64,000 nucleotides of DNA from Lingula anatina (taxonomy: Eukaryota; Animalia; Brachiopoda), in contig CM120643.1 in the NCBI GenBank assembly GCA_051362555.1, forward strand, positions 3,658,001 to 3,722,000, written 5' to 3'. A program made the translations under genes and the position numbers. The notes beneath the pieces were generated by a model, which was given only the letters and a program-made list of their open reading frames with translations, had not been told where the DNA came from and did no database searches. Every line of letters begins with the position of its first letter. Positions within the stretch are counted from its first letter, which is position 1. Positions 7,172 through 45,549 of this stretch are shown here, in pieces.

Positions 7172-7675
7172 TCCTTTTTTTTTTTTTGTTTGTACATTTG
7201 ACAGCTTTGCTGCCTTGTTTTTTTTAATAATCACATTGCAAAATTATTAACATTTAACTATTTTAAGCCATGGAATTTGCAGTGTAATTTTTTAGTTTTT
7301 TAAAAGATATTATACACAGTCAAGTGATCAGCTTATCACAGATTTTTATTGTTGTTAAGCATCATTTGTACAAATTATAGAAATATTGGACAAGATTTGA
7401 CAAAATTATTAACGTTTAACTATTTTAAAGTCCTGGGTTTTGTCAGTCTTCAATGTAAATTTCAGTTTTCCCAAATATATTGTACCAAAAAACTCTTTTC
7501 ATTAGATACAGACAACTGAATTTAATCTTATCACAGATTTTTATTGTTTTTAAGCATCATTTGTACAAATTTCAGAAATAAGTGGCTTATATTCACTTGA
7601 AACCTTATAGAGAAGGTTAGTTGCTCATTCCATGCTAATCTATTTGTTTCTTTTCAGACCAGGCCCCAGCTGACC

Positions 7676-25302: not shown

Positions 25303-25651
25303 ATGTTTTATTCGGCACTGAGATATGTCTACCGAAGTTGTAGTCGACACAGTTTTGTTGGTAGAATAACTCAGTGTTTGGCACAACCCTCACAATGCCA
25401 CCAATCACAGCGATTTACATGTGCCGTCTCTCAACTACGAAGGCGAAGCCCTGACAAGATATGGGGTTGGTCGTTGGGGAGAGTTACCACTGGGACTGAG
25501 CTGTCATACTCTACTACAAAAACAATCAATGAATATGAGGGCATCATCAGAGACACAAAAATGCATTTTGAAAGAAACGCGAAGAGGTACCTCATTCAAG
25601 ATGGTAGGAGCGAAGGGGAGATTATTAGTGATTACGAGAACGGAGCTCATG
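25303..25651 (+). CDS. FASTK/RAP-domain mitochondrial RNA-binding protein, 5' part of first coding exon (interrupted)
   Basis: MFYSALRYVYRSCSRHSFVGRI... is Arg/Ser-rich and acid-poor like a mitochondrial presequence. It joins in frame to 43100 (CAT G|AA GCT GAA AAG). Confidence 0.65.
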
Positions 25652-26198
25652 AGGTAAGAGCACTCGCCCTGTAAGCGAGGGGTCCCGGGTTCGATTCCTG
25701 GTCTGGTCGGTGATTTTTCTGCACTCACCCCAAATCGCTACAATGGTGGCAGCGGTGTTGCGAGATAGGGCTCGCGTCTTTCGGCATTTGGGGGGGAGGA
25801 GTGTAGTGCCAGGGGCAGATAGAACCGGCCGGGTAGCTCAGTAGGTAAGAGCACTCGCCCTGTAAGCGAGGGGTCCCGGGTTCGATTCCTGGTCTGGTCG
25901 GTGATTTTTCTGCACTCACCTCAAATCGCTACAATGGTGGCAGCGGTGTTGCGAGATAGGGCTCGCGTCTTTCGGCATTTGGGGGGGAGGAGTGTAGTGC
26001 CAGGGGCAGGTAGAACCGGCCGGGTTCGATTCCTGGTCTGGTCGGTGATTTTTCTGCACTCACCCCAAATCGCTACAATGGTGGCAGCGGTGTTGCGAGA
26101 TAGGGCTCGCGTCTTTCGGCATTTGGGGGGGAGGAGTGTAGTGCCAGATGCAGGTAGAACCGGCCGGGTAGCTCAGTAGGTAAGAGCACTCGCCCTGT
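25652..26198 (+). mobile_element. Tandem TRIM array with a tRNA-like gene in the LTR (Helenus-type non-autonomous LTR retrotransposon)
   Basis: 191-bp unit = 132-bp LTR TGTAG...CTACA (25802-25933) + 59-bp internal region with PBS TGGTGGCAGCGGTG (tRNA-Leu complement; 25744, 25935, 26079) and PPT GGGGGGGAGGAG. LTR copies at 25652-25742 (5'-truncated), 25802-25933, 25993-26077 (47-bp deletion), 26137-26198 (broken). Confidence 0.85.
25827..25900 (+). tRNA. tRNA-Thr(TGT)-like sequence inside the TRIM LTR
   Basis: Cloverleaf: GGCCGGG/TCTGGTC acceptor (3 G-U), GCTC/GAGC D stem, CTCGC-CCTGTAA-GCGAG anticodon arm, CCGGG-TTCGATT-CCTGG T arm. A/B boxes intact, TTTTT follows. C33 is non-canonical, so probably a Pol III promoter module rather than a functional tRNA. 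Confidence 0.7.
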
Positions 26199-26436
26199 TC
26201 GTGCATTTTCCTACCTTCACCCGGTGTGCTCTCCCTGCGCGGAGAGCGCGCAATTACGGTAAGACTGCGCACACCAGGTGGAGAGCCCAACTTCCCTGCC
26301 TGATCCCGGTGAGTACAACTCAACCACAGCTACCGTGCAGACGTGTACGGTATAGACGACAAAAATAATCAGAATTGAGACACAATACACAGTGATCTAC
26401 AATCTCATTCCGTAAGTAGAACCAGTGAATACTTTA
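26196..26436 (+). repeat. 5' LTR of the gag-only gypsy element (first 5 nt missing)
   Basis: Identical by eye to 42859-43099. Followed by T + PBS TGGCGACAAGG (26438-26448; one mismatch to the tRNA-Ser(GCT) complement TGGCGACGAGG). Confidence 0.85.
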
Positions 26437-27039
26437 TTGGCGACAAGGCATTCGTAACTTGTAATTTTGCTGGCCTAAAGCTTAGTTTTCGCTGTGATCT
26501 AGCTGAAGGTGGATTACGCGGGAAATTCCTTTGTCTAACATCCTTTTGTATAATTGGGTGGAGCGGCGGTCAAAATTGTAGTTTCAATTTTGGATCATAA
26601 AGGTTACCGCTTCAGGAGACACTGGTATTTGTTGCGTATCTACTGTATTTTCAGTGCTTACGTGTGTGAATTGTGATATAAAGGAGATGTTGGTCTCATT
26701 CCCCTGTGTGTTGTTATCAAAGCTGAATTTACCACAAGACTGAGGTGCACACGTAATATTTTAGTTTCTTTGTTTCTTTAGTCTATTTGAAAGAATAAAA
26801 TATTGACTTTAGTGTTGTTGTTGATTATTCTTTTGTATTTTAGATAGGATTCTGAACAGAATTTCTGTCTAAATTCAAATTATTGCGTTGTGTGCCGAAG
26901 TCTTTCTTCCCCGAATTTGAATTAAATGTACGTTTTTGGATTCTATTTATAGTGAATTTCGCTATAAGCTTGGTAGTGTATTGTGCTTTGATAGGTGTAA
27001 TTATTTTGAATCAATTTAATTCTCGCTTACAAATGTACA

Positions 27040-28980
27040 ATGGCGAGTGCATCAAGGTTGCCAAGCAAGCGTGCGACTTACGATGAGCTCGTTACGCTGC
27101 CGGGTATAGGTCCTAAACGTGCAGAAAGGATAATATACGCTAGAGAGCAAGGGATCCCCGTGACCAGATCCAACATTTTGGAAATTTGTGGATCCAATAC
27201 CGAATCAAATAAAATCAAAAATTTCTCTTTTGGGGGTACTCACAGCAGTGAATTAGGATCTGAAGTCAACATGGGTGACCTAGACCCTAGCGTATTATCC
27301 ACTCAAAAAACTCATTACACAACTTCTAAAGTGACTTCCTACATTCAGCATGAAGGAAGAGCGGCTGCTGAGAGATATAGGGTGGAATTTGAAAAGATTC
27401 TCAAACTGGGTGAGAAAATTCAACACCAAGAACAAATTTCTCGCAGTAAAAATGTAAAAAACGCTGCTAATTATTCACCATCAACATATTCTAAATTAAA
27501 ATCTTGTTCAAAGTCACATTTTCACTCAGCTATTGACCCAAAATCTTTCACATCGCAGCCAGCCACTTTAGCCTCTGAATACGACATTTTTACTCTGCCT
27601 ATTGAGAGGCTGCATGCCAATAACAAAGATAAAAAAGTAACATCATCTGTGCATGCAAAGTCTCCAGGCCGCGTCATGAACCCTGATACTGTTACTGCCT
27701 TGCCGAATGGTAAGGACAGTAGTCGGCACTTTGCTCCGTCTGTCCATAAGGGTGATGTGAATTATGATCTGTATCAGTTTCATGTTCCTAAACCCGGACG
27801 GCGGCAACGACATGTTGAGCAAAATTTTGCCGATACAGTTCAACAAAATCATGATTACCGGTCTAGTTCAATAGGAAAACATTATACACGCCCTAGAATC
27901 TCGTCTCCCGTTTTCTGTGACGAACCACTAATTTATGAAAGGGATAACATTGAAAAAGAATACTTTCGGCTACCCAAACCAGAAAAAGTAGGTCCAAAAA
28001 GTAAAAAGGACAGAGTAGACCCCAGAGATTTACCTAAACAATTATCGTTTGACGGAAACAGTGACGACTGGGAGTCTTTCAGAAAAAGATATGAAAGTTA
28101 TCGCCAGATAAAAGAGTGGTCAGAAAACGAGTGTCTGGACTACCTTCTGTGGTGTCTTGAAGGCGAGGCTTTGGCCCTGTATAATAGCCATCTCAGAGCA
28201 AATAAAAATGTGTCGTACACATCTATAATGAAAGAAATGGACTTAGTGTTCGGGATTAAAAAACATCCCGATTCGGCTCGCCTGGCATTTCTTACTGCCG
28301 TTCAATCGCAAAACGAAACGTTAAACCAATGGCTGTGTCGCGTTTTGTTATTGGTCAGAGATGCTTATCCTGATAAATCCGAGTCTTTTAGGACAAAAGA
28401 AACAATATCAAAATTTTGTCAAGGCTGTATTGATCAGGATGCTGGGCGTTATACTAGTTTAAAGCACCCAGCAAGCATCAGCGACGCAATAACACATATG
28501 GTGGACTATCAACATGTTTGTAAACCCACGAATAGTCAAATACAAACAAGAAAAATACGTGAAAAAATTCAAATATGTTCTCTTAATCTTACAGCTAGAG
28601 AAAATCAACAATCTCCGTCTGAAAACGTTGAAAAACTAGCTAAGTCCATCATAGAGAAACGCGTCAGTCAGCAGCCAAAATTGAGCTCAATTCAATTTAA
28701 TTCAATGGCTGACTTGGAAAAAACGGTTGAACATTTGGTCAGGAAGTCCACACCTAAAACATCAAGTGTGTGTTTCTTCTGTAAAAGAAAAGACCATTTT
28801 AAAAGAAATTGCCAGAAATATAAAGAGTTCTTAAAACGAAAAAATACTGATAAAGAACTCGAAAAACAAGAGCGAGCTGATGACGCTGAGTCATTTAAAC
28901 ATAAGGTTCGAGCATCGAGTACATGTTCAAATACACCGTCTCAAATGCATGGCACAGAAAAACCTCACCTACTAAAATAA
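27040..28980 (+). CDS. gag: Gag with N-terminal helix-hairpin-helix, capsid-like region and CCHC zinc knuckle (646 aa)
   Basis: ATYDELVTLPGIGPKRAERII (ComEA-type HhH); FDGNSDDWESF...WSENECLDYLLWCLEGEA capsid motif; CFFCKRKDHFKRNC. Confidence 0.9.
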   Translation: MASASRLPSKRATYDELVTLPGIGPKRAERIIYAREQGIPVTRSNILEICGSNTESNKIKNFSFGGTHSSELGSEVNMGDLDPSVLSTQKTHYTTSKVTSYIQHEGRAAAERYRVEFEKILKLGEKIQHQEQISRSKNVKNAANYSPSTYSKLKSCSKSHFHSAIDPKSFTSQPATLASEYDIFTLPIERLHANNKDKKVTSSVHAKSPGRVMNPDTVTALPNGKDSSRHFAPSVHKGDVNYDLYQFHVPKPGRRQRHVEQNFADTVQQNHDYRSSSIGKHYTRPRISSPVFCDEPLIYERDNIEKEYFRLPKPEKVGPKSKKDRVDPRDLPKQLSFDGNSDDWESFRKRYESYRQIKEWSENECLDYLLWCLEGEALALYNSHLRANKNVSYTSIMKEMDLVFGIKKHPDSARLAFLTAVQSQNETLNQWLCRVLLLVRDAYPDKSESFRTKETISKFCQGCIDQDAGRYTSLKHPASISDAITHMVDYQHVCKPTNSQIQTRKIREKIQICSLNLTARENQQSPSENVEKLAKSIIEKRVSQQPKLSSIQFNSMADLEKTVEHLVRKSTPKTSSVCFFCKRKDHFKRNCQKYKEFLKRKNTDKELEKQERADDAESFKHKVRASSTCSNTPSQMHGTEKPHLLK

Positions 28981-28984
28981 TCAT

Positions 28985-30492
28985 TGCAGCAAAATCAACG
29001 TAGGGGCGTAGAGTGGGAGTCTGATCCTAGTATAGATCAAAATCCTGGGCCTTCAGGCAATTTTTCGTCCATTAAGTGGTCTCGGGTGTAGATCAGTGGA
29101 AAAGTGGACGTGGGCGCGCAGATTTCTGTAATGTCAGGGAGAGTGCATTGCGCGTATTTAATGTTAGCCACCAGTTTTTAGTTATATTGACCTACTATCT
29201 CTTGCTGCAGGGAATCGGAAATTTAGAAATACAGGTTTGCGACAAAATTTTGTGGTGAGATTAACTCTTGTACATGTAGCACCAATGAAAGTTGAAAATT
29301 GAATGCATATGTTCAGTACAACCTAAGTTTTCTGCAAATTGACGGAAAAGATATAGCGGGACGAAGGATTCACAGATCAAAGGAATAATAATAGCACTAG
29401 TACATATAGCGAAATGAAAAGAACAGTGGTATTCCCAAAATCGGAACATGATTCCATGCGAAATCTATAAACAGACTGAAAGGTAGTCTGGAAAGAAAAA
29501 GAGTAAATTGGGGTCACTGATTCAGAGAATGGTGCTGTCCAAAAATTCCGATCAATAAAGAAAACTTCATACGATAAAGTCATGTGGTAGCTACAGTAGC
29601 AAATGACATTTTGGAAACATCTAAATTTGATTGGTATTAACTTAGGGGGTGGATTGTAAAGTTAAAAAAAAAATAATAATAATAAAAAGCTGTGCCTGCA
29701 TTATCAGTTACAAAGCTGATGAGACAACATGTACCGATGTATATCGAATCTTAAAATACGCTTGTGGGATAAAACATACTAGTGGAGGTTTTCATTCACC
29801 CTCCTATAACTGGTAACATCCCTATAACAAGTGTACACCCGAACCAAGACCTAACTTGTGGGATTAAATTCTGCAGGGGTTTCAAGTGTTAATTCCCCTT
29901 ATTTCGAGAATATCCCTAGAACAAGTAACCGATTGAAAAGGACTAAATGTCACAGACTCTGAAGGTGGGTGGAAGCACTAAGGGCCCTTCAAGTGCCCCA
30001 TTCACTGGAAGACGTTTGTAAAACTAAAAATTAACACAAAACTACCGGTAGTATAACATCTTTCAAGACTCCAAACATCGGGAGTCCAAATTTAAATAAA
30101 ACCGCTGGTGAAGTTCACAATGGGCTAGACTCTTCGGGTTGCGTGTCTCTAGTAAAACAGGTTATCCCTGGACATCTGGAAGTGATGTTTACAGTATCTA
30201 AAGGGAATAGTGTAGAATCAAATTTAGAAGGGGTGTTTTCTAAATTGAAATATGTTTTTACTAGAGACAATTTTGATCTTGGTCGGTCTTAAGTCACTCA
30301 ACGTGGAAATGAAGCCGGGAATGCCGAATCCCTTAAATCGCTTATGCGGTGGATGCTTGCGTGTGTCATGCAGAAAGCATAGGGGGCATTGTTAACGGAA
30401 TGTTAACAACCGGATTCATACAAGGCTGACAAGAGTCAGTCTGTGTGGACATTAGCACCGGTGTTGAATAAGTAAACGTGACGTCACGGTGA
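28985..30492 (+). pseudogene. Decayed pol remnant (protease to start of RT)
   Basis: Homologous to the minus-strand pol: aaagtggacgtgggcgcgcagatttctgtaatg ~ KVDTGAQVSVM, KVGGST, and a W..APVL..RD-like segment at ~30447-30490; many stops and frameshifts. Confidence 0.75.
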
Positions 30493-30547
30493 AAAATTTC
30501 CAATAGGGAAAATTAAAAATATTGCTAGCAATTTCCTTAAAGAATTA

Positions 30548-31025
30548 GACTATCACTTTGTGATGTAGTTTATTTTTGTGTTTAAGAAAAATGGCTACAG
30601 TCTATTAAGATCAATTAATGGACTATAACTGTTATGTAGCTTATTTCTGTGTTAATTAACACATGACTACAGTCCATATGACTATCACTCTGTGATGTAG
30701 TTTATTTTGTGTTAATAAATCGCTACAGTCTATTGTGATCAATGGACTATAACTGTTATGTAGCTTATTTTTGTGTAAACACGTGACTACAGTCTAATTT
30801 GATGAAATTTTGAAAAACCGGGATCTTATTTTTGCATTCCATTTTTCTTTTTATTTATTTATGAGAATTTTTGGAACGGACTATCACTATATTTTTGGTG
30901 ATGTGACTGACTGGTGAATGAACAGCCTATCACAGTCTGTTCTACTGTTTATTTATTTTTTGTATTTTTTTTTCGGCGGACTATCACCTCAGTGATGTTG
31001 TTAGCACTAACAGCTAATGACAGTC
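30548..31025 (+). ncRNA. Six copies of a putative three-way-junction RNA motif in the 3' untranslated region
   Basis: GACT-[ATCAC/GTGAT hairpin]-[GTAG..CTAC hairpin]-AGTC at 30548, 30621, 30680, 30745, 30879, 30979, with compensatory changes. Duplicated at 42260-42737. Confidence 0.55.
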
Positions 31026-31320
31026 TGTACGAATATTTCAACTGGAATCCACTTTATTTTATTTATCGAAAGGAATTTTGAGTTTGTACATGGACAAACA
31101 TGTATTTATAAGTAGCTCCTTTCAAATAAAAGTGGGGGGAATGTTGTGTTCGTGCATTTTCCTACCTTCACCCGGTGTGCTCTCCCTGCGCGGAGAGCGC
31201 GCAATTACGGTAAGACTGCGCACACCAGGTGGAGAGCCCAACTTCCCTGCCTGATCCCGGTGAGTACAACTCAACCACAGCTACCGTGCAGACGTGTACG
31301 GTATAGACGACAAAAATAAT

Positions 31321-31375
31321 CAGAAAAATCACCGACCAGACCAGGAATCGAACCCGGGACCCCTCGCTTACAGGG
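31321..31375 (-). other. 3' half of the TRIM tRNA-like sequence (CCCTGTAAGCGAG...GATTTTTCTG)
   Basis: Exact reverse complement of 25858-25912. Confidence 0.9.
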
Positions 31376-31452
31376 AATAAAGTATTCACTGGTTCTACTT
31401 ACGGAATGAGATTGTAGATCACTGTGTATTGTGTCTCAATTCTGATTATTTT
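31376..31452 (-). repeat. Partial 3' LTR (R-U5-like part only) of the TatD element
   Basis: Reverse complement of the last ~77 nt of the LTR, ending ...TACTTTATT. Confidence 0.85.
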
Positions 31453-31477: not shown

Positions 31478-33769
31478 TTACTCCCTTTTATACAAGGAAG
31501 TACCATTTTGTGTAGTGATTTTTAAAATATGAGAGACATCCACCCCTCTGTGCCCCGCCAATATCTCTGCCGTTTCATAGAGAATAAAGGGTGTTGAATG
31601 GCCCCCCTTTTTGCGAGCAAAATAGGGGGCATCTGACTCCAAAAGAAGTTTGGAGTCAGGCACCGCCCTAAGTGCTGCTAGTTGATTTTTGTTAAAGGTG
31701 GCAGCAACCCGGGTGAAACCAAAAAAGGTATTTGGTTGCTGCCTTCCCCAAATTTCGAGAAGGGCCTTAGTGCCTGTAAAGCAGTGAAAATGGATCCTCT
31801 GGGACTGCGGAACGCCACACAGTTTCAGATGAAACAAAAGAGATCTTATGGCGAACTCACAGTCTCCAGAGTCTCCCCTCACTCCCCTACAGTGCACAAC
31901 CAGGACATGCCTGGCCTCTAGAAAAGGCAGAAGTCTGTGGAGCAACTCAACCTGATCCTGCCATTTAGACATGGCTTCAGTGTGGTCAAAACCTACCTCG
32001 CCAAAAGCTGTTACTAGCGGCATCTTAACCAACTCTGAGAAAGCCTTAATTGCCTGGTCCAGATTGCCCTGAGAAAGCTTGCCGGCTAGCCTCGGGTGAA
32101 AACCAATAGCTACATACTCGATCCCAGACAGAGTGGAAAGATACCCCTTAGTAGGATATGTCTTGGGATCGCAGTAAATAGCTACAGTTCCCACCAACTC
32201 TACCTCTTTCCCAGAGCAAACAGGAAGCAAACCCTTAAGACCCTCTAACTTGCCAGAGTATGGAAGACCAAAGGCAGCCAGGGTTCTATCTAGATGATAG
32301 TGACTATCGAAAGCTTGCCTCCCTGACTTACTTTGTTCCCCCGCCTCCAGACAAGTTTCTGGCCTGGTGAACCCTTGAATCCACAACGACCTCTGCTGCT
32401 CCGTTATAGAAGCAGACAGCTGTGTCAGGACTCTCCAATCCACCAGGACCCCGACAGAGTTAGCTGGGTATAAGGTGAAACACACTGGGACCGGTTTATT
32501 GAGAAATTTACAGAAATTTTCCATGGCAGTAATTTGGATTGAAGAAAAAGTGCCATGGGCTAAATTTAATTTATCTGGAAGAGCCGAAATGAACTGGTAT
32601 AAAGTGTCCAGTTCTTTTTTAAAACCAAAAATGAAGAAAGTAAGCATCTCCAGTGCTTTAACCATTACACCCAAGATGTTGGGCTCAGGATTGGCGCGCT
32701 CATCAAAGATAGACGGGACATGCAGCCCCAGCGAATGCTGCCTGAGCATCTGCTCATTGAATTTCACCCCACACCCAGGGACCACACATTGCATCCCAGA
32801 GTGATCTTTCCTGGCCCTTTTGGGGTCAGGTCCAACCACTCCGGATGGTGTCTGGCTAGACCTTTTCGGTTCCCTGGTTGTAGGATGAGACAGCTCCGCT
32901 GACTCAACATGCCCATCCACCCCAGACTTTGCAGCAACCAACCCCTTGCCAGGTTTCTTACCACGCCTCCACCAAGGAGCTCTCTTCTTCCCCTTACGCT
33001 TACTGCCCCCCATGGGCTCAGATGGTACAGGCCCAGGAACAGGAACTTGGATCCCTGTTGGAGCAGCAGCTTCAGGGAGGTGTGAACCTGAAGAAGAGGA
33101 GATAGAAAAGTTAAAAGGGATGGCGGTATTTTGCAGCAGTGATGCGCCTGGCTTAGAAGCTTCCGGAGCAGCTGGAGGTTTCACGCTGGTTTCAGCATCC
33201 CTTGGGACTCCAAGAAGTCTGTCCTCCTCAATGGAGTCCAGACTGGAGTTGGGGTCGATGTTACTTGACCCCACACCAAGTTCAGCCTCAACCAATTGCG
33301 ATTCCACCTCCATAGGCTGGACCGAGCCACTCCCATCGACCACCTGGGAAATGAGTGTTATGTTTGGGTCCTTCCCAAGCCTGAAATCACGAGTTTTTTG
33401 TCCATCGTACTCCACGGAGGGAGCAGATTTCAAAACCCGTGCAGGAAGGGTGAAATTTTTGGGAAGGCGCCAAACATTCTTCTCAATCCAGTTTTTAGAC
33501 GCAAGCCCACTAGATTGTAGTTGGTAGGCCACTTGCTGCAACCATGCCAGAGACATGGCATACCTACCGGGAGCACGAAGCTCCTTTTTATAAATGGTAG
33601 CCATCCCAGCCACCAGTGTTTTGAAGTAGCTGCTGTGATCTTCCCCAGGCAGAGCCTGGGCCAAATCCTGGACAAACTGGGTTCCAGGGACATCTATAGG
33701 TGAACAATGCTGTAATCTGAGTGAAGTCTCCTTCACAACAGGTGCTACTTCCGTGATAGTATTGGCCAT
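31478..33769 (-). CDS. ORF3: TatD-family metal-dependent DNase with ~480-aa N-terminal extension (763 aa)
   Basis: TatD motifs FDSHYHLD, GFHP, FGEVGFD, VVHCR, HFHCFTG, LLESDAPYF in 31478-32315. Basic patch KRKGKKRAPWWRRGKK and C-x4-C..H-x4-H finger upstream. Confidence 0.9.
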   Translation of the reverse strand: MANTITEVAPVVKETSLRLQHCSPIDVPGTQFVQDLAQALPGEDHSSYFKTLVAGMATIYKKELRAPGRYAMSLAWLQQVAYQLQSSGLASKNWIEKNVWRLPKNFTLPARVLKSAPSVEYDGQKTRDFRLGKDPNITLISQVVDGSGSVQPMEVESQLVEAELGVGSSNIDPNSSLDSIEEDRLLGVPRDAETSVKPPAAPEASKPGASLLQNTAIPFNFSISSSSGSHLPEAAAPTGIQVPVPGPVPSEPMGGSKRKGKKRAPWWRRGKKPGKGLVAAKSGVDGHVESAELSHPTTREPKRSSQTPSGVVGPDPKRARKDHSGMQCVVPGCGVKFNEQMLRQHSLGLHVPSIFDERANPEPNILGVMVKALEMLTFFIFGFKKELDTLYQFISALPDKLNLAHGTFSSIQITAMENFCKFLNKPVPVCFTLYPANSVGVLVDWRVLTQLSASITEQQRSLWIQGFTRPETCLEAGEQSKSGRQAFDSHYHLDRTLAAFGLPYSGKLEGLKGLLPVCSGKEVELVGTVAIYCDPKTYPTKGYLSTLSGIEYVAIGFHPRLAGKLSQGNLDQAIKAFSELVKMPLVTAFGEVGFDHTEAMSKWQDQVELLHRLLPFLEARHVLVVHCRGVRGDSGDCEFAIRSLLFHLKLCGVPQSQRIHFHCFTGTKALLEIWGRQQPNTFFGFTRVAATFNKNQLAALRAVPDSKLLLESDAPYFARKKGGHSTPFILYETAEILAGHRGVDVSHILKITTQNGTSLYKRE

Positions 33770-33771
33770 AT

Positions 33772-33800
33772 CTGTAATAACAATGAAAAATAATTATTAG
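33772..33800 (-). promoter_or_regulatory. Candidate splice acceptor for a subgenomic ORF3 mRNA
   Basis: Minus strand CTAAT branch-like site, T-rich tract, then TTACAG 2 nt before the ORF3 ATG. Confidence 0.55.
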
Positions 33801-36800
33801 ATTTGACATTTTACACACTTGTATTTATCAATGTTTATCGCTTCGGTAGAAGTGACATTGACGCAGGATCCATGATACCATTCATGACAGTAATCACATT
33901 GAATCATGAATCTGCCCTGATAAGGCTCCCTGCAAATACAGTATGGTGTCAAATCTTCTTCCTCACTGTTACTCGAGTGCTGAAATTGTTCATCAGAAGC
34001 TAAATATTCTGTAATCCATGAGGGTACATTTCTGTCCCTACAGGGCATGAGCCTGTCATGGTTAATTACAAAGATTGCATTTTTTAGCTTCACTCGATAC
34101 AGATAGCCAGATAATTTCTTTACAATGATGGCGGGTCCTTTCCATGGTGAACACAATTTTCGTGATTTGCCTTTAGTTGTTGCTGTATCCAAAACATAAA
34201 CCAAATCCTTTTCAGCATAAGGTCTAAGCAGGATTTTAAGGTCATAGTCACGTTTCATGCGTTTTGAAGTTGTTTTTAAATTGGCTCTTGCTGTAATATG
34301 AGCTAATTTCATTTTTTGTACTAACTTTGAAATGTATTCACCATAGTCAGTTTCTTTTGATTTCAGATTTGGGAACATAATTTGGGCTGGAGTACTGACC
34401 TCCCTCCCAAGCATGAGCATATTAGGGGTATACCCCGTACTTCTGTTTACAGAAGCACGCAACGCGCCTGCAATTTGCTGGACATATTTATCCCATTCAC
34501 CCTGATTTTTACCCAAAAAACACCGTACGGCATCCATCAGGGTACGATTGAACCTTTCAACCTGTCCATTTGCAGACGGTCGGTACGGAGTAGTGCGTGA
34601 TTTGTGTATATGTAAGGCCCTACACAAATCCCCGAACAATTGACTTTCAAAATTCCGTCCCTGATCAGAAAAAAGTTGATAGGGATAACCGAACCTAGAA
34701 AAGAAACAGTCAATTGCTGCTTTCGCGGTAACTTCAGCCGTTTGAGAAGGCAACGGTACGCACTCTACCCACTTTGTGAATTGATCAACCATGACCAAAC
34801 AATGCTCATTACCTTTTGCTGTTTTAGGTAGCGGTCCCAAGAAATCAATATGAACCCGTTCCATCGGAGCACCTGCAACATATTCAGTCAGGGGGACTCT
34901 TCCGTAACACCCTTTTTTCTTATTTTTATTACAGATGTCACAACTCAGGACATAATTGGCTATTTCTTTGCTCATATGGGGCCAGTAAAATTTTTCTTTG
35001 ATTTTTGTTTTTGTTCTAGCCACTCCTTGGTGACCAGCTGAAGGGATATCATGATGTAACTTGAAAACAGAATTTTTTAATGATTCTGGGATGACTAATT
35101 TTAGATCTTTGCTTTCCTCTTCAGTTTTGAAAATGACTCCATGATGTAATTTGAATAATTCTTTATTCAGCCAGTAAGTTTTGGAGATTGGGCTTGATCG
35201 GAAGAGTGCACCCTGATCTGGGGTATTCCCATTGCATAACCACTCTCGTAAAATGTTAAGCTCAGGGTCTTTTGCTTGTTCAGTTTTTAATTTTTCCATA
35301 GAAAAACCCCAACACTGAGGAATATCCGGGTTTGGATTTGACCTCGCCTCCGGACCACACGCATTTATTTCTACATGAGATTCCTCGGGTTGCAGAGCTA
35401 CATCGGTAGAGAGGGCTACAATTTTATCTAGGAGACAATAAAAAAGATGTTCCGGACCCGTTTCTCGTCCCAGATTGACTGTATTTAATGAGGATGTTAG
35501 ATCGCGTTGACTTTTTGTAGATTTACCAGTAAATTTGGATGACAATTTTTTCTTTTCTGTTAAATTGACCGCTTCGTCGACGTCACCGAAAAAACTCCCC
35601 CAGTTTTCATGGGCTCTGACGCAATAACTACATCCTCCGCAAGGTAAATTTTCCGGCTTTATTCCCGCTATATACTCGTTACACGGTGCCAAATTGTCGG
35701 GTATTCTAGACAACGAATCAGCATTGCTATGCTTAGCTCCGGCACGATGTTGTACGATCATATTGAATTGCGAAAGCTCTTCTATCCACCTCGCGAGTTG
35801 ACCTTGAGGCTCCTTAAACCTCAGTAACCACGTCAGACTTGAATGATCGGTGCGAACGGTAAATATTCGGCCCAAAAGATAATACCTGAATTGTCTGGTA
35901 AATCTCACGATAGCCAAAAGCTCTTTTCGCGTGGTGCAATAATTCTTTTGTTCGGGAGTTAACGCGTAGCTGCCGTACGCAATTACTTTCTCCTCGCCGT
36001 TTTGCACTTGTATTAACTCTGCACCAATCGAGTGATTTGAAGCGTCGGTATCTAAAATAAACGGATCGTTTGCGTTTGGTAACGATAAGACTGGTGGTGT
36101 AGTCAATGCCGTTTTGAGCGCTTCGAAAGATTGAGCTTGATCTGGTCCCCATTCAAAGGCATGTTTACCTTTAATTTTGCTCAGAGGATGGGATATTTCC
36201 GCAAAATTTTTTATAAAAGTCCGGTGATAATTTGCCAATCCTAAGAACCTTTCAACGTCCTTAGAACAAGTGGGTTGTGGCCAAGAAGTTACAACTTCAA
36301 TATCCTTAGGGCTCATTTTCATGGTGTTATTAGAAACAATCCGCCCCAGGAATTCAACTTCTTTTTGAAACAAAACGCACTTTTTTGGCTTTAATTTGAT
36401 ACCGAACTGGCGAAATCTTCCCAAAGCCTCTTTCAAATTTTCTAAATGATTTTCAAAGGACTTCCCCATTACCAAAATGTCGTCCAAAAATGCCAAAACT
36501 GTTTTCCATGTCAACCCCTTCATAAGTAAATTGACTACTCGGGAGAAAGTCGCAGGAGCATTGGTCAAGCCGAAACCCATACGGACATGTTCGAATAATC
36601 CGTATTTCGTGATAAAAGCTGTTTTATGCCTATCTTCGGGTTTAATTTTGACTTGCCAATACGCAGAATTAGCATCTAACTTCGAAAACCAGATGTTTCC
36701 CGACAGCGTATCTTTGCAATCTTCCATTAATGGTAACGGGTACGTGTCTTTGACCGTGACATTGTTCAAGGCGCGATAATCGATGCACCATCGGACGGAA

Positions 36801-38545
36801 CCGTCACGTTTTCTTATTAAAACTGGTGCTGATGCCCACTCTGACGTAGACTCTTGGATGACCCCAGCTTTTAACATTTTTGTTAATAATGCCTCCTCTT
36901 CTTGAATAAAACACGCGGGAGTTCGCCGCATACGCGTTTTAAGAGGTTTGGCATTCCCGGTATCGATACCATGCTCGATGGCACTAAACCGACCAAGGTC
37001 ATACTCGTCTCTAGCAAAAACATCCTGAAATTCAGATAGAACATTCTTTAATTTTTTACTCTGAATTTTGTTTAAATTCCTCTTTGATGTTTCATAAACC
37101 ACTTTTACATGGTCAGGAATTTCTGATGATTTGCTAGCGACGCGTCCAGAAGAATCTAGTCCGGCGTGAACGTCACCAGCGATTTGTTGAAAATTCCGCA
37201 CCTGAGGTGACCCCTTTACAGGTGACTTGAAAATTTCGGTGTTAATTTTTTCTTCAACGAACCCCTTTCCGGCAGATGGGGCACTTACAGGGCCCTGAGT
37301 ACTTCCACCCACCTTCAGAAGTTGTTTACTTTTTGTGTCATTTTTAAATCGGGCACTTGTTTTAGGGATATTCTCAAAATTAGGGGAATTAACACCAGAA
37401 ACCCCAGTAGAATTTAATCCCACAAGCTTTGTCATATTTGGGTGCACACCTGTTCTAGGGATTTTACTAGTTCTAGGAGTGTAAATTGAATGCTCCACTG
37501 GTAAATTGAATCCCACAAGTGTGTTTGTAGAATCCCTACCGGTTCTAGGGACGGCTGATTTTACACGAGTAATTTCAGGTAATCCCACCAGTAGATCGGT
37601 AGTCATTGTCTCATCAGTGGTACTGACAACACGAGCGCTGGATTGGTCAATTTTAGTAGACCCCCCTCCCACTCGATGTAAACCGAAGTGCGAAACAGGG
37701 TTTTCTAAAATTTCCGAAACTTCGCAAGCCGTAGCGACCACATGACCCCTTTTTAATTTTTTAAATTGATCTGATGGATTTAAGAGGCACACGACTGGTT
37801 TTGATTTTTCGGACAAGACAGTTCTCGGTATTAGTAGTCCCTCTTCTTCTTTACCCTCGACGACGTATTTTTCTAACTTTTCGTCGATCTCGCACGTTAT
37901 TCTTAGTGCTGAATTTGGGGGTACTACTACATTTCGTGAAACGCTAACCCGAGCTATTTTAATGTCTTGTGCACGCGACTCCGTTTGCTGCATAGGTATG
38001 TCGCGCCCTTCTATTTGGATGTAACCCAAATTACAATGCACGCTTGCATTAAACTGGGCAATTAGATCGTGGCCTAACAAAAAATCGTCATGTATCGGCG
38101 CTACCAGAACAGATTCCTTGATTTCGAAACGATCTAGTTCGATGGAAATTGGCTCACAAACACGAGTTTCGATTTGTATATCCCCTGCCGCAAGAGTAAG
38201 ACTGTAATATTTCTTGAGCGATGGTTTATTTTTTATTTGCTCGAATATTTTTTCAGCCATGACAGAAACTTGCGCACCGGTGTCAACTTTGGCCATTACA
38301 TGTACACCCGCCACTACCAAAGGAACGAATGAAGATCGAAAAACCCCAAGTTCATCAATTACAGGATTTTGACCACATTCTAACTCGGAATGATGAGGAC
38401 GATGCAATGTTTCCATTACGGGGATAGTATTGTCAACGGTTCGTGTTTGAGACAATGAAGTCGCGATGGTTTCACCCGTTTTGTGACCGGTTTCAGTCGG
38501 GTTTCCAAGGTTACGGTCATTTCCCTTGGACCCTTCTAGTTTAAA
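33797..38545 (-). CDS. pol: Pol: aspartic protease, RT, RNase H, integrase, C-terminal PHD finger
   Basis: KVDTGA; APVLIRKRDGSVRWCIDYRALN, FLDD; LDTDAS, KELLAI, RTDH, NADSLSR; HHCC plus D-D-E (HIDF, FSDQG, QVERFN), WKGP; YCICREPY...CDYCHEWYHGSC...CVKC. Frame stays open back to the slippery site. Confidence 0.95.
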   Translation of the reverse strand, partial: FKLEGSKGNDRNLGNPTETGHKTGETIATSLSQTRTVDNTIPVMETLHRPHHSELECGQNPVIDELGVFRSSFVPLVVAGVHVMAKVDTGAQVSVMAEKIFEQIKNKPSLKKYYSLTLAAGDIQIETRVCEPISIELDRFEIKESVLVAPIHDDFLLGHDLIAQFNASVHCNLGYIQIEGRDIPMQQTESRAQDIKIARVSVSRNVVVPPNSALRITCEIDEKLEKYVVEGKEEEGLLIPRTVLSEKSKPVVCLLNPSDQFKKLKRGHVVATACEVSEILENPVSHFGLHRVGGGSTKIDQSSARVVSTTDETMTTDLLVGLPEITRVKSAVPRTGRDSTNTLVGFNLPVEHSIYTPRTSKIPRTGVHPNMTKLVGLNSTGVSGVNSPNFENIPKTSARFKNDTKSKQLLKVGGSTQGPVSAPSAGKGFVEEKINTEIFKSPVKGSPQVRNFQQIAGDVHAGLDSSGRVASKSSEIPDHVKVVYETSKRNLNKIQSKKLKNVLSEFQDVFARDEYDLGRFSAIEHGIDTGNAKPLKTRMRRTPACFIQEEEALLTKMLKAGVIQESTSEWASAPVLIRKRDGSVRWCIDYRALNNVTVKDTYPLPLMEDCKDTLSGNIWFSKLDANSAYWQVKIKPEDRHKTAFITKYGLFEHVRMGFGLTNAPATFSRVVNLLMKGLTWKTVLAFLDDILVMGKSFENHLENLKEALGRFRQFGIKLKPKKCVLFQKEVEFLGRIVSNNTMKMSPKDIEVVTSWPQPTCSKDVERFLGLANYHRTFIKNFAEISHPLSKIKGKHAFEWGPDQAQSFEALKTALTTPPVLSLPNANDPFILDTDASNHSIGAELIQVQNGEEKVIAYGSYALTPEQKNYCTTRKELLAIVRFTRQFRYYLLGRIFTVRTDHSSLTWLLRFKEPQGQLARWIEELSQFNMIVQHRAGAKHSNADSLSRIPDNLAPCNEYIAGIKPENLPCGGCSYCVRAHENWGSFFGDVDEAVNLTEKKKLSSKFTGKSTKSQRDLTSSLNTVNLGRETGPEHLFYCLLDKIVALSTDVALQPEESHVEINACGPEARSNPNPDIPQCWGFSMEKLKTEQAKDPELNILREWLCNGNTPDQGALFRSSPISKTYWLNKELFKLHHGVIFKTEEESKDLKLVIPESLKNSVFKLHHDIPSAGHQGVARTKTKIKEKFYWPHMSKEIANYVLSCDICNKNKKKGCYGRVPLTEYVAGAPMERVHIDFLGPLPKTAKGNEHCLVMVDQFTKWVECVPLPSQTAEVTAKAAIDCFFSRFGYPYQLFSDQGRNFESQLFGDLCRALHIHKSRTTPYRPSANGQVERFNRTLMDAVRCFLGKNQGEWDKYVQQIAGALRASVNRSTGYTPNMLMLGREVSTPAQIMFPNLKSKETDYGEYISKLVQKMKLAHITARANLKTTSKRMKRDYDLKILLRPYAEKDLVYVLDTATTKGKSRKLCSPWKGPAIIVKKLSGYLYRVKLKNAIFVINHDRLMPCRDRNVPSWITEYLASDEQFQHSSNSEEEDLTPYCICREPYQGRFMIQCDYCHEWYHGSCVNVTSTEAINIDKYKCVKCQI
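38505..38545 (-). promoter_or_regulatory. -1 programmed ribosomal frameshift signal
   Basis: T TTA AAC heptamer (38545-38539) directly before the gag TAG; the -1 frame is pol. Downstream GGTC/GACC and CAAGG/CCTTG can form an H-type pseudoknot. Confidence 0.75.
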
Positions 38546-40616
38546 TGAGTTGGATTCGTTATATCAGCCCGTGCTTGTTGTTTTTCAGCATTTTTTCTTT
38601 GTAAGAATTTTTTATATTTTAGGCAATTTCGTTTAAAATGGCCCTTTCCTTTACAGAAAAAACACACAGGTGTTGTTTTAGGTGTGAATTTCCGGACCAA
38701 GCGTTCAACCATAGATTCCAACTCTGCCATTGAATTAAACTGAATTGTATTCAATTTAGGTGACTGGCTAACGCGTTTTTCCACGATGGATTCAACAAGT
38801 TATATTTTAGGCAATTTCGTTTAAAATGGCCCTTTCCTTTACAGAAAAAACACACAGGTGTTGTTTTAGGTGTGAATTTCCGGACCAAGCGTTCAACCAT
38901 AGATTCCAACTCTGCCATTGAATTAAACTGAATTGTATTCAATTTAGGTGACTGGCTAACGCGTTTTTCCACGATGGATTCAACAAGTTGTTCTACATTT
39001 TCAGTTGGAAATTGCTGATTTTCATCAGCTGTTAGATTTAGAGAACTAATTTGTAATTCATCACGATTTTTTCGTGTTGGTTTTTGAATATGTGATGATT
39101 TGTAGACTTGCTGATAATCCACCATGTAGGTCATTGCCTCGCTGATGCTTGCTGGATGTTTTAAACGAGTGTAACGCCCGGCATCCTGATCAATGCAGCC
39201 CTGACAAAATTTAGATATTGTTTCTTTTGTTCTAAAGGATTCTGATTCATCAGGATAAGCATCTTTGGCCAATAACAAAACACGGCACAGCCATTTATTC
39301 AAGGTTTCGTTGGGAGATTGAACTGCTGTGTGAAATGCCAAACGAGCTGAATCGGGATGTTTTTTAATTCCGAATACTGAATCCATTTCACTCATTAAGG
39401 CTGAATACGTCATGTTTTTATTTGCTCTGAGATTGGTGTTATACAAAGCCAAAGCCTCGCCTTCCAGACTCCATAAAAGGTAATCTAGACACTCATTTTC
39501 CGACCACTCTTTCACTTGGCGATAACTGTCAAATCTGTTTTTAAAAGACTCCCAGTTTTCACAATTTCCGTCAAAAGACAATTTTTTGGGTAAATCACTG
39601 GGGTCCCCTCTGTCCTTTTTAGGTTTAGGACGTACTGGTTTTGGTACTGTAAAATATTCATTTTCACTTTCATCGCTTTCGGGAAGAAGTGGTTCGTCGC
39701 GGAAAACGGGAGACGAAATTCTATGGCGCGTATGATGTTTTTCTATTGAACTCGGCCGGTAATCATGTTTACGTTCGACTGTATCAGCAACATTATGCTC
39801 AACGTTAAGTTGCCGCCGTCCGGGCGTAGGAACATGAATCTGTGGCAGATCATAATTCGAAACAACCCGATGGACAGACGGAGCTGGTCGCCGACTACTT
39901 TCCCTACCAGTCGGTAAAGAAGTAACAGTCTCGGAATTTATGACACGGCCTGGAGGCTTTATATGCGCGGAAGAAGTTATATGATCTTTGTTATCGACAC
40001 GCAGCCTCTCAATAGGCAGAGCAAAAAGATCGTATTCAGGGTCTAAAGTGGCTGGCTGCGAAGTGAAAGTTCTGGGGTCCAAAGCTGAGTGAGAACGTAA
40101 TTTTGTTTTTGGTTTGATAAATTGCTGCTCAGTTGTTGATTTTGAACGAGCTTTTAATTTTAAATATGTTGGTGGAGAATAAGTTGCAGCTTTTTGAATG
40201 TTTTTACTGCGTGAAATTTTTTCTTGTTGATTAATTTCCTCACCCACTTTGAGAATTCTTTCAAATTCTGCCCTATAGCTTTCAGCAGCCGCTCTTCCTT
40301 CATTATGAATGTAGGAAGTCACTTTAGAAGTTTTGGGTTTTTGACTTTTTTCAGTGGATAATGTGCTAGTATCGAGGTCACCCACGTCGACTTCAGATCC
40401 GAATTCACTTCTGTGAGTACTGCCAAAAGAGAGATTTTCAATTACATTTGATCCAAGATTGGATCCACAAATCTCCAAAATGTTGGATCTGGTCACGGGG
40501 ATCCCATGTTCTCTAGCATATATTATCCTTTCTGCACGTTTAGGACCTATACCTGGCAGCGTAACGAGCTCATCGTAAGTAGCATGATTGACTGGCAACC
40601 TTGATGCACTCGCCAT
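38536..40616 (-). CDS. gag: Gag (HhH - capsid - CCHC), disrupted near the C-terminus by a 188-bp tandem duplication
   Basis: VNHATYDELVTLPGIGPKRAERII, CFFCKGKGHFKRNC present twice. Ancestral end ...THLN* at 38536, current stop at 38751. Confidence 0.88.
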
Positions 40617-40690
40617 TGTACATTTGAAAGCGAAAACTAAATTGATTCAAAATAATTTCACTTATCAAAGCACAATACACTACCAAGCTT

Positions 40691-43099
40691 ACCTACTGCA
40701 GCAAAATCAACGTAGGGGCGTAGAGTGGGAGTCTGATCCTAGTATAGATCAAAATCCTGGGCCTTCAGGCAATTTTTCGTCCATTAAGTGGTCTCGGGTG
40801 TAGATCAGTGGAAAAGTGGACGTGGGCGCGCAGATTTCTGTAATGTCAGGGAGAGTGCATTGCGCGTATTTAATGTTAGCCACCAGTTTTTAGTTATATT
40901 GACCTACTATCTCTTGCTGCAGGGAATCGGAAATTTAGAAATACAGGTTTGCGACAAAATTTTGTGGTGAGATTAACTCTTGTACATGTAGCACCAATGA
41001 AAGTTGAAAATTGAATGCATATGTTCAGTACAACCTAAGTTTTCTGCAAATTGACGGAAAAGATATAGCGGGACGAAGGATTCACAGATCAAAGGAATAA
41101 TAATAGCACTAGTACATATAGCGAAATGAAAAGAACAGTGGTATTCCCAAAATCGGAACATGATTCCATGCGAAATCTATAAACAGACTGAAAGGTAGTC
41201 TGGAAAGAAAAAGAGTAAATTGGGGTCACTGATTCAGAGAATGGTGCTGTCCAAAAATTCCGATCAATAAAGAAAACTTCATACGATAAAGTCATGTGGT
41301 AGCTACAGTAGCAAATGACATTTTGGAAACATCTAAATTTGATTGGTATTAACTTAGGGGGTGGATTGTAAAGTTAAAAAAAAAATAATAATAATAAAAA
41401 GCTGTGCCTGCATTATCAGTTACAAAGCTGATGAGACAACATGTACCGATGTATATCGAATCTTAAAATACGCTTGTGGGATAAAACATACTAGTGGAGG
41501 TTTTCATTCACCCTCCTATAACTGGTAACATCCCTATAACAAGTGTACACCCGAACCAAGACCTAACTTGTGGGATTAAATTCTGCAGGGGTTTCAAGTG
41601 TTAATTCCCCTTATTTCGAGAATATCCCTAGAACAAGTAACCGATTGAAAAGGACTAAATGTCACAGACTCTGAAGGTGGGTGGAAGCACTAAGGGCCCT
41701 TCAAGTGCCCCATTCACTGGAAGACGTTTGTAAAACTAAAAATTAACACAAAACTACCGGTAGTATAACATCTTTCAAGACTCCAAACATCGGGAGTCCA
41801 AATTTAAATAAAACCGCTGGTGAAGTTCACAATGGGCTAGACTCTTCGGGTTGCGTGTCTCTAGTAAAACAGGTTATCCCTGGACATCTGGAAGTGATGT
41901 TTACAGTATCTAAAGGGAATAGTGTAGAATCAAATTTAGAAGGGGTGTTTTCTAAATTGAAATATGTTTTTACTAGAGACAATTTTGATCTTGGTCGGTC
42001 TTAAGTCACTCAACGTGGAAATGAAGCCGGGAATGCCGAATCCCTTAAATCGCTTATGCGGTGGATGCTTGCGTGTGTCATGCAGAAAGCATAGGGGGCA
42101 TTGTTAACGGAATGTTAACAACCGGATTCATACAAGGCTGACAAGAGTCAGTCTGTGTGGACATTAGCACCGGTGTTGAATAAGTAAACGTGACGTCACG
42201 GTGAAAAATTTCCAATAGGGAAAATTAAAAATATTGCTAGCAATTTCCTTAAAGAATTAGACTATCACTTTGTGATGTAGTTTATTTTTGTGTTTAAGAA
42301 AAATGGCTACAGTCTATTAAGATCAATTAATGGACTATAACTGTTATGTAGCTTATTTCTGTGTTAATTAACACATGACTACAGTCCATATGACTATCAC
42401 TCTGTGATGTAGTTTATTTTGTGTTAATAAATCGCTACAGTCTATTGTGATCAATGGACTATAACTGTTATGTAGCTTATTTTTGTGTAAACACGTGACT
42501 ACAGTCTAATTTGATGAAATTTTGAAAAACCGGGATCTTATTTTTGCATTCCATTTTTCTTTTTATTTATTTATGAGAATTTTTGGAACGGACTATCACT
42601 ATATTTTTGGTGATGTGACTGACTGGTGAATGAACAGCCTATCACAGTCTGTTCTACTGTTTATTTATTTTTTGTATTTTTTTTTCGGCGGACTATCACC
42701 TCAGTGATGTTGTTAGCACTAACAGCTAATGACAGTCTGTACGAATATTTCAACTGGAATCCACTTTATTTTATTTATCGAAAGGAATTTTGAGTTTGTA
42801 CATGGACAAACATGTATTTATAAGTAGCTCCTTTCAAATAAAAGTGGGGGGAATGTTGTGTTCGTGCATTTTCCTACCTTCACCCGGTGTGCTCTCCCTG
42901 CGCGGAGAGCGCGCAATTACGGTAAGACTGCGCACACCAGGTGGAGAGCCCAACTTCCCTGCCTGATCCCGGTGAGTACAACTCAACCACAGCTACCGTG
43001 CAGACGTGTACGGTATAGACGACAAAAATAATCAGAATTGAGACACAATACACAGTGATCTACAATCTCATTCCGTAAGTAGAACCAGTGAATACTTTA
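40691..43099 (+). repeat. Direct duplicate of 28967-31325 (pol remnant, 3WJ array, PPT) ending in a complete 246-bp LTR (42854-43099)
   Basis: Offset 11712 bp; identical by eye except a 12-bp deletion at the left junction. LTR runs TGTTG...CTTTA. Confidence 0.9.
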
Positions 43100-44686
43100 A
43101 AGCTGAAAAGGACCTTGACGGAGTTCTACGGTATATATATGCAGTCGTTAGTCTTAAATGTTTGAGGGATTCGCCAAGATATCAAAACACTCATCTTCTA
43201 CAAGATGACAGGATATCATCAGCCCTGCTAACCATCATGAATAAAGGTTTGATGGAGGGAAGTGTTCCACGTCTGTTAATCGGATTGTTGGTAGTTGGGG
43301 TTTTAATTCAGCCATCTCCAGAAATCCTTCAGTTTTATAAGGAACTGGAGAGACACATGTCACAGGTATGGTCCGAATGGCATGTTGAGTCTAGGATAGA
43401 GGCCAGATACGGATGGTTACATCTGTCTTTACTACACAAGCAGAAATACTTCGAAGAGCAGATAAGGATTTTCTTGAAGCACTTGATGAGTGAGGCAGAG
43501 CTAGAGAGGAAAGAACTTGGAGGCAAAGAAACTCACTGGCTTGTTAGTGTTCTACACTCTGCAACATACTATTCTTGTGAACTGGGAGGAAAATGGGTGG
43601 ATGAAAATGATGTAAGACATTTTTTACAGGAGCTGAAATTCAACAGTGAATTCTCTGAGCCGAGAGAAGTGTACAGGTATGTCCAACTCTGTCATAATGT
43701 TGAATATTTGGTGCCCTCTGACATTTTATGGAAGGGGTTGGAGATTCTGCTTCGTGATGGAACTGAAGAATACAAGAGGCGTGCATTTCTGTGCATTAAG
43801 TGGATGTTGGGCTTAGCCCAAAAGCAGAAGTTGAATAAAGGTTTCATGGATGTACAATATGTTACAGAACTTGCTGAGATATTTAAGAAGCATGCATCTT
43901 TGTTGCCATTGAGAGAGCAAATTGGTATCACATGGCAATTTGGTGTAAATTATTATTCTGATCATGAAATGCTGTTGAAAGTTGCTGAGAACTTTGTGGC
44001 TAATGCACAAGATATCGATGGGGAGGATGGTTATAGATTAGTTCATGCTTACCTACGAATGGATTGCAATACAAATATTGCTTTTTTAAAAAAAGTGGTT
44101 GATTTAGTGCAAAACCAAAGGAGAAATGTCCCTCCTTTCAAATTGCTTTCCATTACTTGTGATTTGATGCGCTGTCATGGCTATTATGAAGTCTTCAGTG
44201 GAATACTTGATAGTTGTTTCCAGTCTGGTCTGATGAAAGAGGAATCATTAAATGTTATGAAGCCAAGAGGGTGTATAAAGATTGTGGAGTTGTGTGGAAG
44301 GTTAGAAATAGAGCAAATTGACAAGTATGTTAAGAAGATTCCACCAAGCCTTTACAAAGCAGATGGCATTCAATACTGTGCGGAAAAATTGAAAAATATA
44401 TGTCAGCATTCCTCAAAGAAGGCTGTTTTAGCAGCTGTACAGATGATTCTTGGTGGTCCCCACATGGCAAGAGTCACGCCAGTACTTTCCATATATCGTC
44501 CTATTGTGGAGTTCTGTTTGAATGACTTGAATGAGCCTGTAGACATGAAGCTGGTGCCCAGGGTCTTTGATGAAAATGGATTCCTCAAAATGGAAAACAT
44601 GTCTGCCTTGCCAGAAAGATGGAGAAGAATAGCAGTGTGGATTCTTCATGATGAAGATTTCTTTATCAACAAGCCAATGTTAACTG
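43100..44686 (+). CDS. FASTK/RAP-domain protein, 3' part of first coding exon
   Basis: Open from 43100 (AEKDLDGVLRY...). Leu-rich helical region, then RRIAVWILHDEDFFINKPMLTG (RAP start). Donor G|GTGAGT at 44687. Confidence 0.75.
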
Positions 44687-45407
44687 GTGAGTTAAAAATG
44701 TGGTTGTTGTATGTAGAGATAGCTTTAGTAAGCCCACCCTGCTGCCATGAGCAGCTTTGGGTTTTAACTAACACAAGCTTGACTTCTGTGTATTGAGCCT
44801 ATTTCTTCTAAATACTTGCTGGTTACCCACTGAGGGCCAGCTTATATAGCCATAACAACAATGGGGTACTGGGAATAACAATAGGGTACAAAGGACAACA
44901 ATGATGTATCAATAGAGAGTAATGTAGACAACTGACGCTTGTATAGTACACTTCTCATATTAATTCAACATATGTAAGTATCAAACTGTGCACCTGCCTT
45001 GTTGATTTCAATAAGCATTTTATCAGTAATACCTAAAGATGTTATTTGACTGTGGCTATGTACCCTTTTTTCTTTTTTTTTTTTTTCTTTTTTTTTTGGG
45101 GGGGGGGGATTTGAGTACTTTCTCTCTGTATGTACATGTCAAATAATAAGTACTAAACTCTTCCTCACTGAATCACAGCATGTAACTGTGGTATATATTT
45201 CCCAGGTAACAGTGTATTATCTCACACCTTAACAGAGGCCATCTAAATTTGAATGGGTTATATGTCTATGTGATAAAGTTTTGACATGAATAGGTTTTCT
45301 TTGTGTAAATATTAATATTTCAGTGCATTCAGGCACACATTTCCTCTTAGTAAGACATTGAAATATGTTTTACGTTAAACATTGATTTGGTTTTCTTTAT
45401 TCACCAG

Positions 45408-45549
45408 GTGTAGCAAAGGCTTACAAAAAATTCCTATATCAAGCAGGATACAGAGAGGTTCTAGAGGTGCCTTTTTTTATGGTGAAAGAGAAATCTGCAA
45501 GTTTGCACAAGTTTTTGAAGGAGGAATTGGAAAAAATCCCTCACATAAG
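45408..45549 (+). CDS. FASTK-family exon completing the RAP domain
   Basis: Acceptor caccag, phase-compatible; VAKAYKKFLYQAGYREVLEVPFF matches the RAP pattern (K.R.L...GY.V..VP(Y/F)); donor AG|GTAAGG. Confidence 0.75.

Follow-up and report, generated by a model that had tools for sequence, protein, structure and literature searches.

Two gypsy junctions in the anticodon loop of a Helenus tRNA in Lingula anatina probably stem from one event within a composite insertion

Can a gypsy retrotransposon choose the anticodon loop of a tRNA as its integration site? The question is raised by a locus of the brachiopod Lingula anatina (assembly GCA_051362555.1, contig CM120643.1, positions 3,658,001 to 3,722,000 of the forward strand; this stretch of 64,000 nucleotides is the window below), in which the two halves of a tRNA-Thr(TGT)-like gene are each joined to gypsy DNA. 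The tRNA lies in the long terminal repeat (LTR) of Helenus-1_LAn, a terminal-repeat retrotransposon in miniature (TRIM). A reading made from the sequence alone had ascribed the joints to two different gypsy elements, one with gag only (here element A) and one with a TatD DNase gene (element B), and had proposed site-specific targeting of the loop, which if true would be a new targeting mode. The evidence goes against it. We consider it likely that the junctions are the two sides of a single faulty insertion of A into a Helenus-1_LAn array, from which copying with strand switches later produced a 17.4-kb composite, and the locus is in our view an unusual but explicable rearranged insertion.

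Both junctions exist. At the first, the tRNA 5' half ends CTCGCCC(TGT) at 26195-26198 and is directly followed, as had been noted, by the gag-only element, which is entered at LTR nt 6. At the second, on the minus strand, an LTR end plus TT at 31376 is followed by CCCTGTAAGCGAG (31375 downward); this joint is blunt, the LTR end plus TT meeting CCCTGT without microhomology (31376/31375). Together the halves rebuild one tRNA-Thr(TGT) with an overlap that takes in the final base of the stem and the loop up to and including the anticodon and is either 3 nt (CCC) or 6 nt (CCCTGT) long, an ambiguity that arises because TGT is common to the tRNA and LTR nt 6-8. An independent second junction in the 191-nt TRIM unit would give an overlap of 0-6 nt with a chance of 7/191 (3.7%); therefore one event is likely for both, and the two junctions are probably reciprocal.

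The LTR on both sides is that of A. The segment 31376-31452 is identical at 77/77 positions to the end of A's 5' LTR plus the next two bases (26362-26438), so two different gypsy elements do not meet at the tRNA. Nor does the TatD element end at the tRNA 3' half: the A LTR piece intervenes, joined to B at a 6-nt microhomology. Contigs of public sequencing runs bear on this arrangement; 10 of 11 listed runs contain element B, and we compared contigs of four of the 11 (X1, X2, X3 and X9, from three studies). In X1 and X3, contigs of B part from the window sequence at 31447, where 132 nt of a different sequence follow, and in X1, X2 and X3 LTR position 31313 is joined to 31452 on the opposite strand, which restores an uninterrupted LTR. 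A's LTR is broken reciprocally, with a plus-strand piece ending at nt 184 and an inverted piece starting at nt 172, and the block contains two reciprocal break pairs, one with the 3-6 nt tRNA overlap and one with an LTR overlap of nt 172-184. We also considered for B an LTR whose U3, overlapping the TatD end, would be B's alone and whose R-U5 region would be common with A; this was rejected, as B has no polypurine tract (PPT) followed by TG and continues differently. In the 750 nt preceding B's end there is no resemblance to LTR nt 1-172, the local score of 22 being close to that of shuffled sequence (mean 21.7).

Neither of the two tRNA junctions resembles a product of integrase, because the left one is without the first 5 LTR bases and the right one keeps an extra TT, namely the spacer T and the first base of the primer-binding site (PBS). 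The true LTR end is fixed, and the TT is extra, because a second copy of A ends cleanly at TA against the host exon (43099/43100) and because the relatives L005, L007 and L014 also read ACTTTA-T-TGG ahead of the PBS. That second copy retains a complete 3' LTR (42854-43099), and A's LTR as a whole is 246 bp long with TG..TA termini (LTR identity 241/241). Priming by a tRNA half was ruled out by eye, A's PBS (TGGCGAC...) not being complementary to the tRNA-Thr halves.

The wider setting is a block of 17.4 kb, from 25652/3 to 43099, that comprises the Helenus array, element A, the inverted element B and a duplicated half of A, and that lies without target-site duplication (TSD) in a host exon. 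It is a single insertion within one exon, because the paralogues are contiguous and contigs of X1 and X2 contain the empty site. The open reading frame (ORF) right of the elements is 50-89% identical to eight uncharacterised L. anatina proteins of a multicopy family of ~700 aa; by tblastn, residues 1-~120 of the paralogues match 25303-25653 and the remainder matches from 43099/43102 onward, with no residue gap between the halves in P0002, P0003 and P0005. Going left from 43100, the X1 and X2 contigs enter the sequence left of 25652, and in these contigs the empty site shows neither host loss nor a 4-bp duplication, with at most 1 nt shared. In their sizes, 3, 5, 6 and 6 nt, the microhomologies at the junctions also carry information, given that the chance per junction is 0.006 for at least 5 nt and 0.002 for at least 6 nt; three further junctions with 0-2 nt are little informative.

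Would the family then integrate site-specifically in the anticodon loop of tRNA-Thr or Helenus sequences? Such a reading concerns independent LTR copies ending cleanly at TG/TA inside CTCGCCCTGTAAGCGAG. The reciprocal junctions and the confinement of the overlap to a 7-nt loop speak for it, as do the RNA polymerase III (Pol III) boxes of Helenus, Pol III genes being known gypsy targets (PMC5911963, in part), and the PHD finger in pol and the nuclease ORF of the clade could guide integration. On the other side, a single event probably lies behind both junctions, both LTR ends at the tRNA are non-canonical, and the independent, clean flank, at 43099, is host exon rather than tRNA. Two window stretches were compared with the run contigs, junction 1 lying in neither; where several flanks occur at one place, a consensus stands for them, and contigs drop rare variants. 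Neither a joint nor an indel between the LTR and the tRNA 3' half occurred in the contigs of the four runs, for which the joint and indel tables are complete (three entries each), and no piece bridging 31375/31376 was present among the 32 of 202 pieces listed, which go down to 52-63 nt. Among the loose ends listed (24 of 80 and 24 of 101), those at 31375 continue into an intact tRNA 5' half in all four runs. Those at the LTR end run into the PBS (X2, X3, X9) or other sequence (X9 at 31378 and X1 at 31376, two contigs each), and those at the LTR start are AT-rich (X2 at 31142, two contigs; X3 at 42854, three contigs); some of the latter may come from LTR variants ~92% alike. We regard site-specific targeting as very improbable.

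Known tRNA-targeting elements lead the same way. Ty3, DGLT-A and Skipper-2 are, in Table 1 of PMC5911963, gypsy elements that insert just upstream or downstream of tRNA genes at a recurring position, and they resemble the window locus in placing gypsy DNA beside a Pol III-type sequence. The window locus differs in that a single event struck the body of the gene, its ends are damaged, and the other flanks consist of non-tRNA sequence. Instead of recurrence of independent copies at a fixed tRNA position we find a host-exon flank and no such joints, and instead of integrase-processed ends with a TSD of fixed length we find ends 5 nt short and 2 nt long around a 3-6 nt overlap. The word "anticodon" is absent from the consulted part of PMC5911963, and our literature search found no paper on target-specific gypsy integration at anticodons. 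The remaining Helenus breakpoints (25652, 31321 and a 47-bp deletion) lie outside the anticodon loop. A softer variant, in which the TatD/PHD clade has a real but non-exclusive preference for the anticodon stem-loop of Helenus elements that it also mobilises, with this locus as a damaged example, would make the clade a parasite inserting into its own parasite; we give it hardly any credence.

The faulty insertion that we favour was probably not finished by integrase, and the arrangement before it was scrambled would most simply have been Helenus 5' half, then complete A, TT and Helenus 3' half. In a first step, a linear cDNA of A would have been captured at a break in a Helenus tRNA, the TT being either left over at an end that integrase had not trimmed or copied from the border between 5' LTR and PBS. 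In a second step, the right end of a new A cDNA would have been joined by integrase to the host exon, while its broken left end primed repair synthesis, read here from right to left. This synthesis would have copied the LTR-less body of B and then passed, at a 6-nt microhomology, to the donor's 3' LTR. After 132 nt, which took in the TT and the tRNA 3' half, it would have folded back (5 nt) to the opposite strand of that LTR and gone on through the whole of A and the Helenus array upstream, until the host was rejoined (1 nt). Read from the right, the block consists of a clean LTR end, 2.4 kb of A, a templated insert of ~7 nt and B in sense direction; leftward it continues with the 6-nt switch, A LTR, 132 nt, the 5-nt fold-back, A, the Helenus array and host sequence. 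The block fits one-ended integration and repair synthesis with template switches. In aberrant integration of human immunodeficiency virus type 1 (HIV-1) and avian sarcoma/leukosis virus (ASLV), one end is normal and the other truncated, and the truncated end joins, by short homology, element DNA in either orientation or DNA copied from elsewhere (PMC5041404, relevant passages). The window block likewise has one normal end and one that is truncated and joined; those cases, however, are experimental, with a blocked or mutant end, whereas here the process would have taken place in an invertebrate gypsy element with three donor elements.

The sequence-only reading had offered, as a fallback, one insertion later scrambled by recombination with a relative. 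The single, later rearranged insertion is supported; the switches are microhomologies of 3-6 nt, however, and do not correspond to homologous recombination between relatives. Several points weigh against the account that we prefer. All four runs differ from the window at fixed positions, i.e., they come from other animals, and in them no junction of the locus is confirmed by reads; the pieces and loose ends seen are only those among the 32 of 202 and 24 of 80 listed. An intact donor locus (Helenus-A-Helenus) was not seen. The left junction starts at an internal TG, and integrase could also have made it at a cryptic end. Both the order of events, for which one sequence is the basis, and the enzymes are inferred. 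That one event should hit a 7-nt loop within a unit of 191 nt is a coincidence of a few percent, chosen post hoc; we take the position in the anticodon loop to be chance.

The same switches could have arisen in a virus-like particle in which Helenus, A and B RNAs or cDNAs were co-packaged, by template jumps of reverse transcriptase and end joining, with integration by the one good end. All three parts plausibly use one machinery, gag A is 81% like gag B, the relative L007 has the PPT end, LTR start and 13-nt PBS of Helenus-1_LAn, and a TT is expected of an untrimmed cDNA end. This route needs two independent reciprocal break pairs (about 4% and 6%) and two strand inversions, however, and a three-unit Helenus array with upstream U3 is easier to obtain from a genomic donor; we consider it unlikely. 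Microhomology fold-back inversions and identical duplicates are typical of whole-genome-amplification chimeras, and the block has fold-back inversions and a 100% identical 2.3-kb duplicate, with no junction seen in the other runs. That the composite is an amplification or assembly chimera is nevertheless slightly less probable still, as the block lies between exactly abutting host exon halves and has a precise LTR terminus, which are unexpected for a random chimera. On our preferred reading of a faulty insertion copied into a composite, the locus is a well-resolved case from nature of a complex retrotransposon insertion, stitched together by microhomology, that interrupts a host exon and leaves no TSD; it is also a caution that reciprocal junctions at a striking site can stem from one event.

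Coordinates of the features of the 17.4-kb block and the interrupted host exon (window positions)
Feature	Position	Strand	Remarks
Interrupted host exon, 5' part	25303..25652	+	Residues ~1-124; tblastn of P0001-P0008
Helenus-1_LAn tandem array	25652..26198	+	Parts given in the text
Junction 1, tRNA 5' half to LTR nt 6	26193..26198	+	First 5 LTR nt missing, TGT shared
5' LTR of A, nt 6-246	26196..26436	+	Followed by T spacer, PBS at 26438
gag ORF of A	27010..28980	+	N-terminal helix-hairpin-helix, PNMA-like capsid region
Decayed pol remnant, AT-rich tail and PPT of A	28985..31141	+	43% aa identity to pol 344-582
3' LTR of A, nt 1-184	31142..31325	+	Stops at 5-nt microhomology with inverted TRIM piece
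tRNA 3' half (Helenus LTR 3' part, 55 nt)	31321..31375	-	Inverted, cut short of LTR end
A-type LTR, nt 172-246 plus TT	31376..31452	-	Carries junction 2 at 31376/31375
TatD element to A LTR piece	31447..31452	-	6-nt microhomology; contig comparison
ORF3 of B	31478..33793	-	Zinc-finger-like region and TatD DNase domain (PF01026)
pol of B	33797..38563	-	Protease, reverse transcriptase, RNase H, integrase, C-terminal PHD
188-bp tandem duplication near end of gag B	38612..38989		2-nt microhomology; frame shifted
gag B and truncated 5' end of B	38751..40691	-	81% nt identity to gag A; no 5' LTR/PBS
Switch from B to second A copy	40691..40697	+	~7 nt match A sequence 12 nt upstream of resumption (templated insertion)
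Second copy of 3' half of A	40697..43099	+	2341/2341 identical to 28985-31325
Interrupted host exon, 3' part	43100..44697	+	Next exon at 45407

The identification of the TRIM as Helenus was borne out: compared by eye, the internal part in the window equals the Helenus-1_LAn sequence in the supplement of PMC10886601, and the intact LTR differs from it at two positions. Helenus-1_LAn is a published Lingula TRIM, assigned to TRIMp3 (Kojima 2024, PMC10886601). The unit in the window conforms to Helenus (TRIMp3): it is short and non-coding, an internal part with PBS and PPT stands between LTRs, and the LTR contains a sequence derived from a tRNA. Of its 191 bp, 132 make up the TG..CA LTR with the tRNA-Thr(TGT)-like gene and 59 the internal part. 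The array begins inside a tRNA and runs through a truncated LTR, an internal part, a full LTR (25802-25933), an internal part, an LTR with a 47-bp deletion at a 6-nt microhomology, an internal part, and the 5' part of a fourth LTR, which breaks off in the anticodon loop. Tandem arrays are reported for another Helenus family and 4-bp TSDs for animal families in the relevant passages of PMC10886601, which contain no mention of elements inserting into Helenus; unlike the published elements, the window array has lost its two outer ends, and a 4-bp TSD is not seen there. ARAGORN calls a tRNA-Thr at 25638-25709 that is partly host exon, the host/Helenus junction mimicking the missing 5' arm.

Element A, of ~5.2 kb, has a single gag ORF between its LTRs and retains a pol remnant. 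It shares the first trait with TR-GAG, described in the consulted part of PMC4350172 as non-autonomous plant LTR elements under 4 kb with gag as the sole long ORF, and differs from it in being an animal element, in its greater length and in its pol remnant. Troyka, as described in the passages seen of PMC12440569, occurs in brachiopods, as A does, and has a TSD of 3 bp, the length of the overlap in its shorter reading, but its CG..CG termini rule it out as the identity of A, with TG..TA. LTRs ending in TA, with a one-base spacer and PBS, were observed in the window (42854-43099) and in L004, L005, L007 and L014; those of L020 and L026 end in CA.

We regard the clade of element B as a more durable lead than the tRNA junctions. 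B has the Ty3/gypsy pol order of protease, reverse transcriptase, RNase H and integrase, and pol ends in a PHD finger (33797-33970); the gag proteins of A (27010-28980) and B (38751-40646) both begin with a helix-hairpin-helix. The truncated window copy of B has no LTR, PBS or PPT of its own; all three are present in the relatives L005, L007, L014 and L020. ORF3 matches the TatD DNase profile (PF01026, E 2.3e-27, profile 1-253), and its residues H489, H491, E590, H625, H659/H661 and D712, which we take to be putative metal ligands, are invariant in 17/17 aligned rows. A Cys/His motif lies upstream of the TatD domain in ORF3-type ORFs after pol.

The region search found 20 ORF3-related proteins, with relatives in Lingula, Mercenaria, Dreissena and others; a search with whole ORF3, whose search words came from the variable N-terminus, gave no protein match, and the viral_contigs scan gave no relative. 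There were 158 representatives at E<=1e-30, and 80 of 107 metagenome loci were taken. The ORF3-specific region ahead of TatD was matched in 22 of the 80, with pol on the same strand in 15; the seven without pol have at most 836 nt upstream. Three more loci have pol and no ORF3-specific match, and many of the remaining loci have a match in the TatD domain alone and may be normal genes of cells. Elements with a TatD ORF come from marine-animal-associated contigs (L001-L026, L043, L049, L058). Conservation of the TatD ORF behind pol extends across a wider gypsy clade; our literature searches, which reached neither Repbase nor subscription journals, found no description of TatD in LTR retrotransposons.

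The clade is also a candidate autonomous partner of Helenus, because PBS, PPT and LTR start of its members match Helenus-1_LAn: L007 (5096-5370), L020 (1038-1290) and L014 (2230-2570) have the PPT end and the LTR start TGTAGTG found at 25790-25950 of the window, and L007 also has the 13-nt PBS. ARAGORN detected no tRNA in the 80 metagenome loci and blastn no tRNA-Thr match, the element-type contigs being LTR-collapsed or ending before the flank.

The host gene family (window 25303-25652 and 43100-45562) has no Pfam match; the C-terminus of the protein recalls, we presume, FASTKD/RAP proteins. Outside the block, ORFs with an ALKBH8_N match (47168-47794, minus strand) and a PHD match (9545-10006, plus strand) are, at a guess, probably fragments of other mobile elements. 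Window positions 1-8300 and 46000-53800 hold dispersed repeat families of ~338 bp and ~160 bp, and a 38/39-bp tandem array lies at 7659-8273 and an 88-bp inverted repeat (99%) at 6633-6885.

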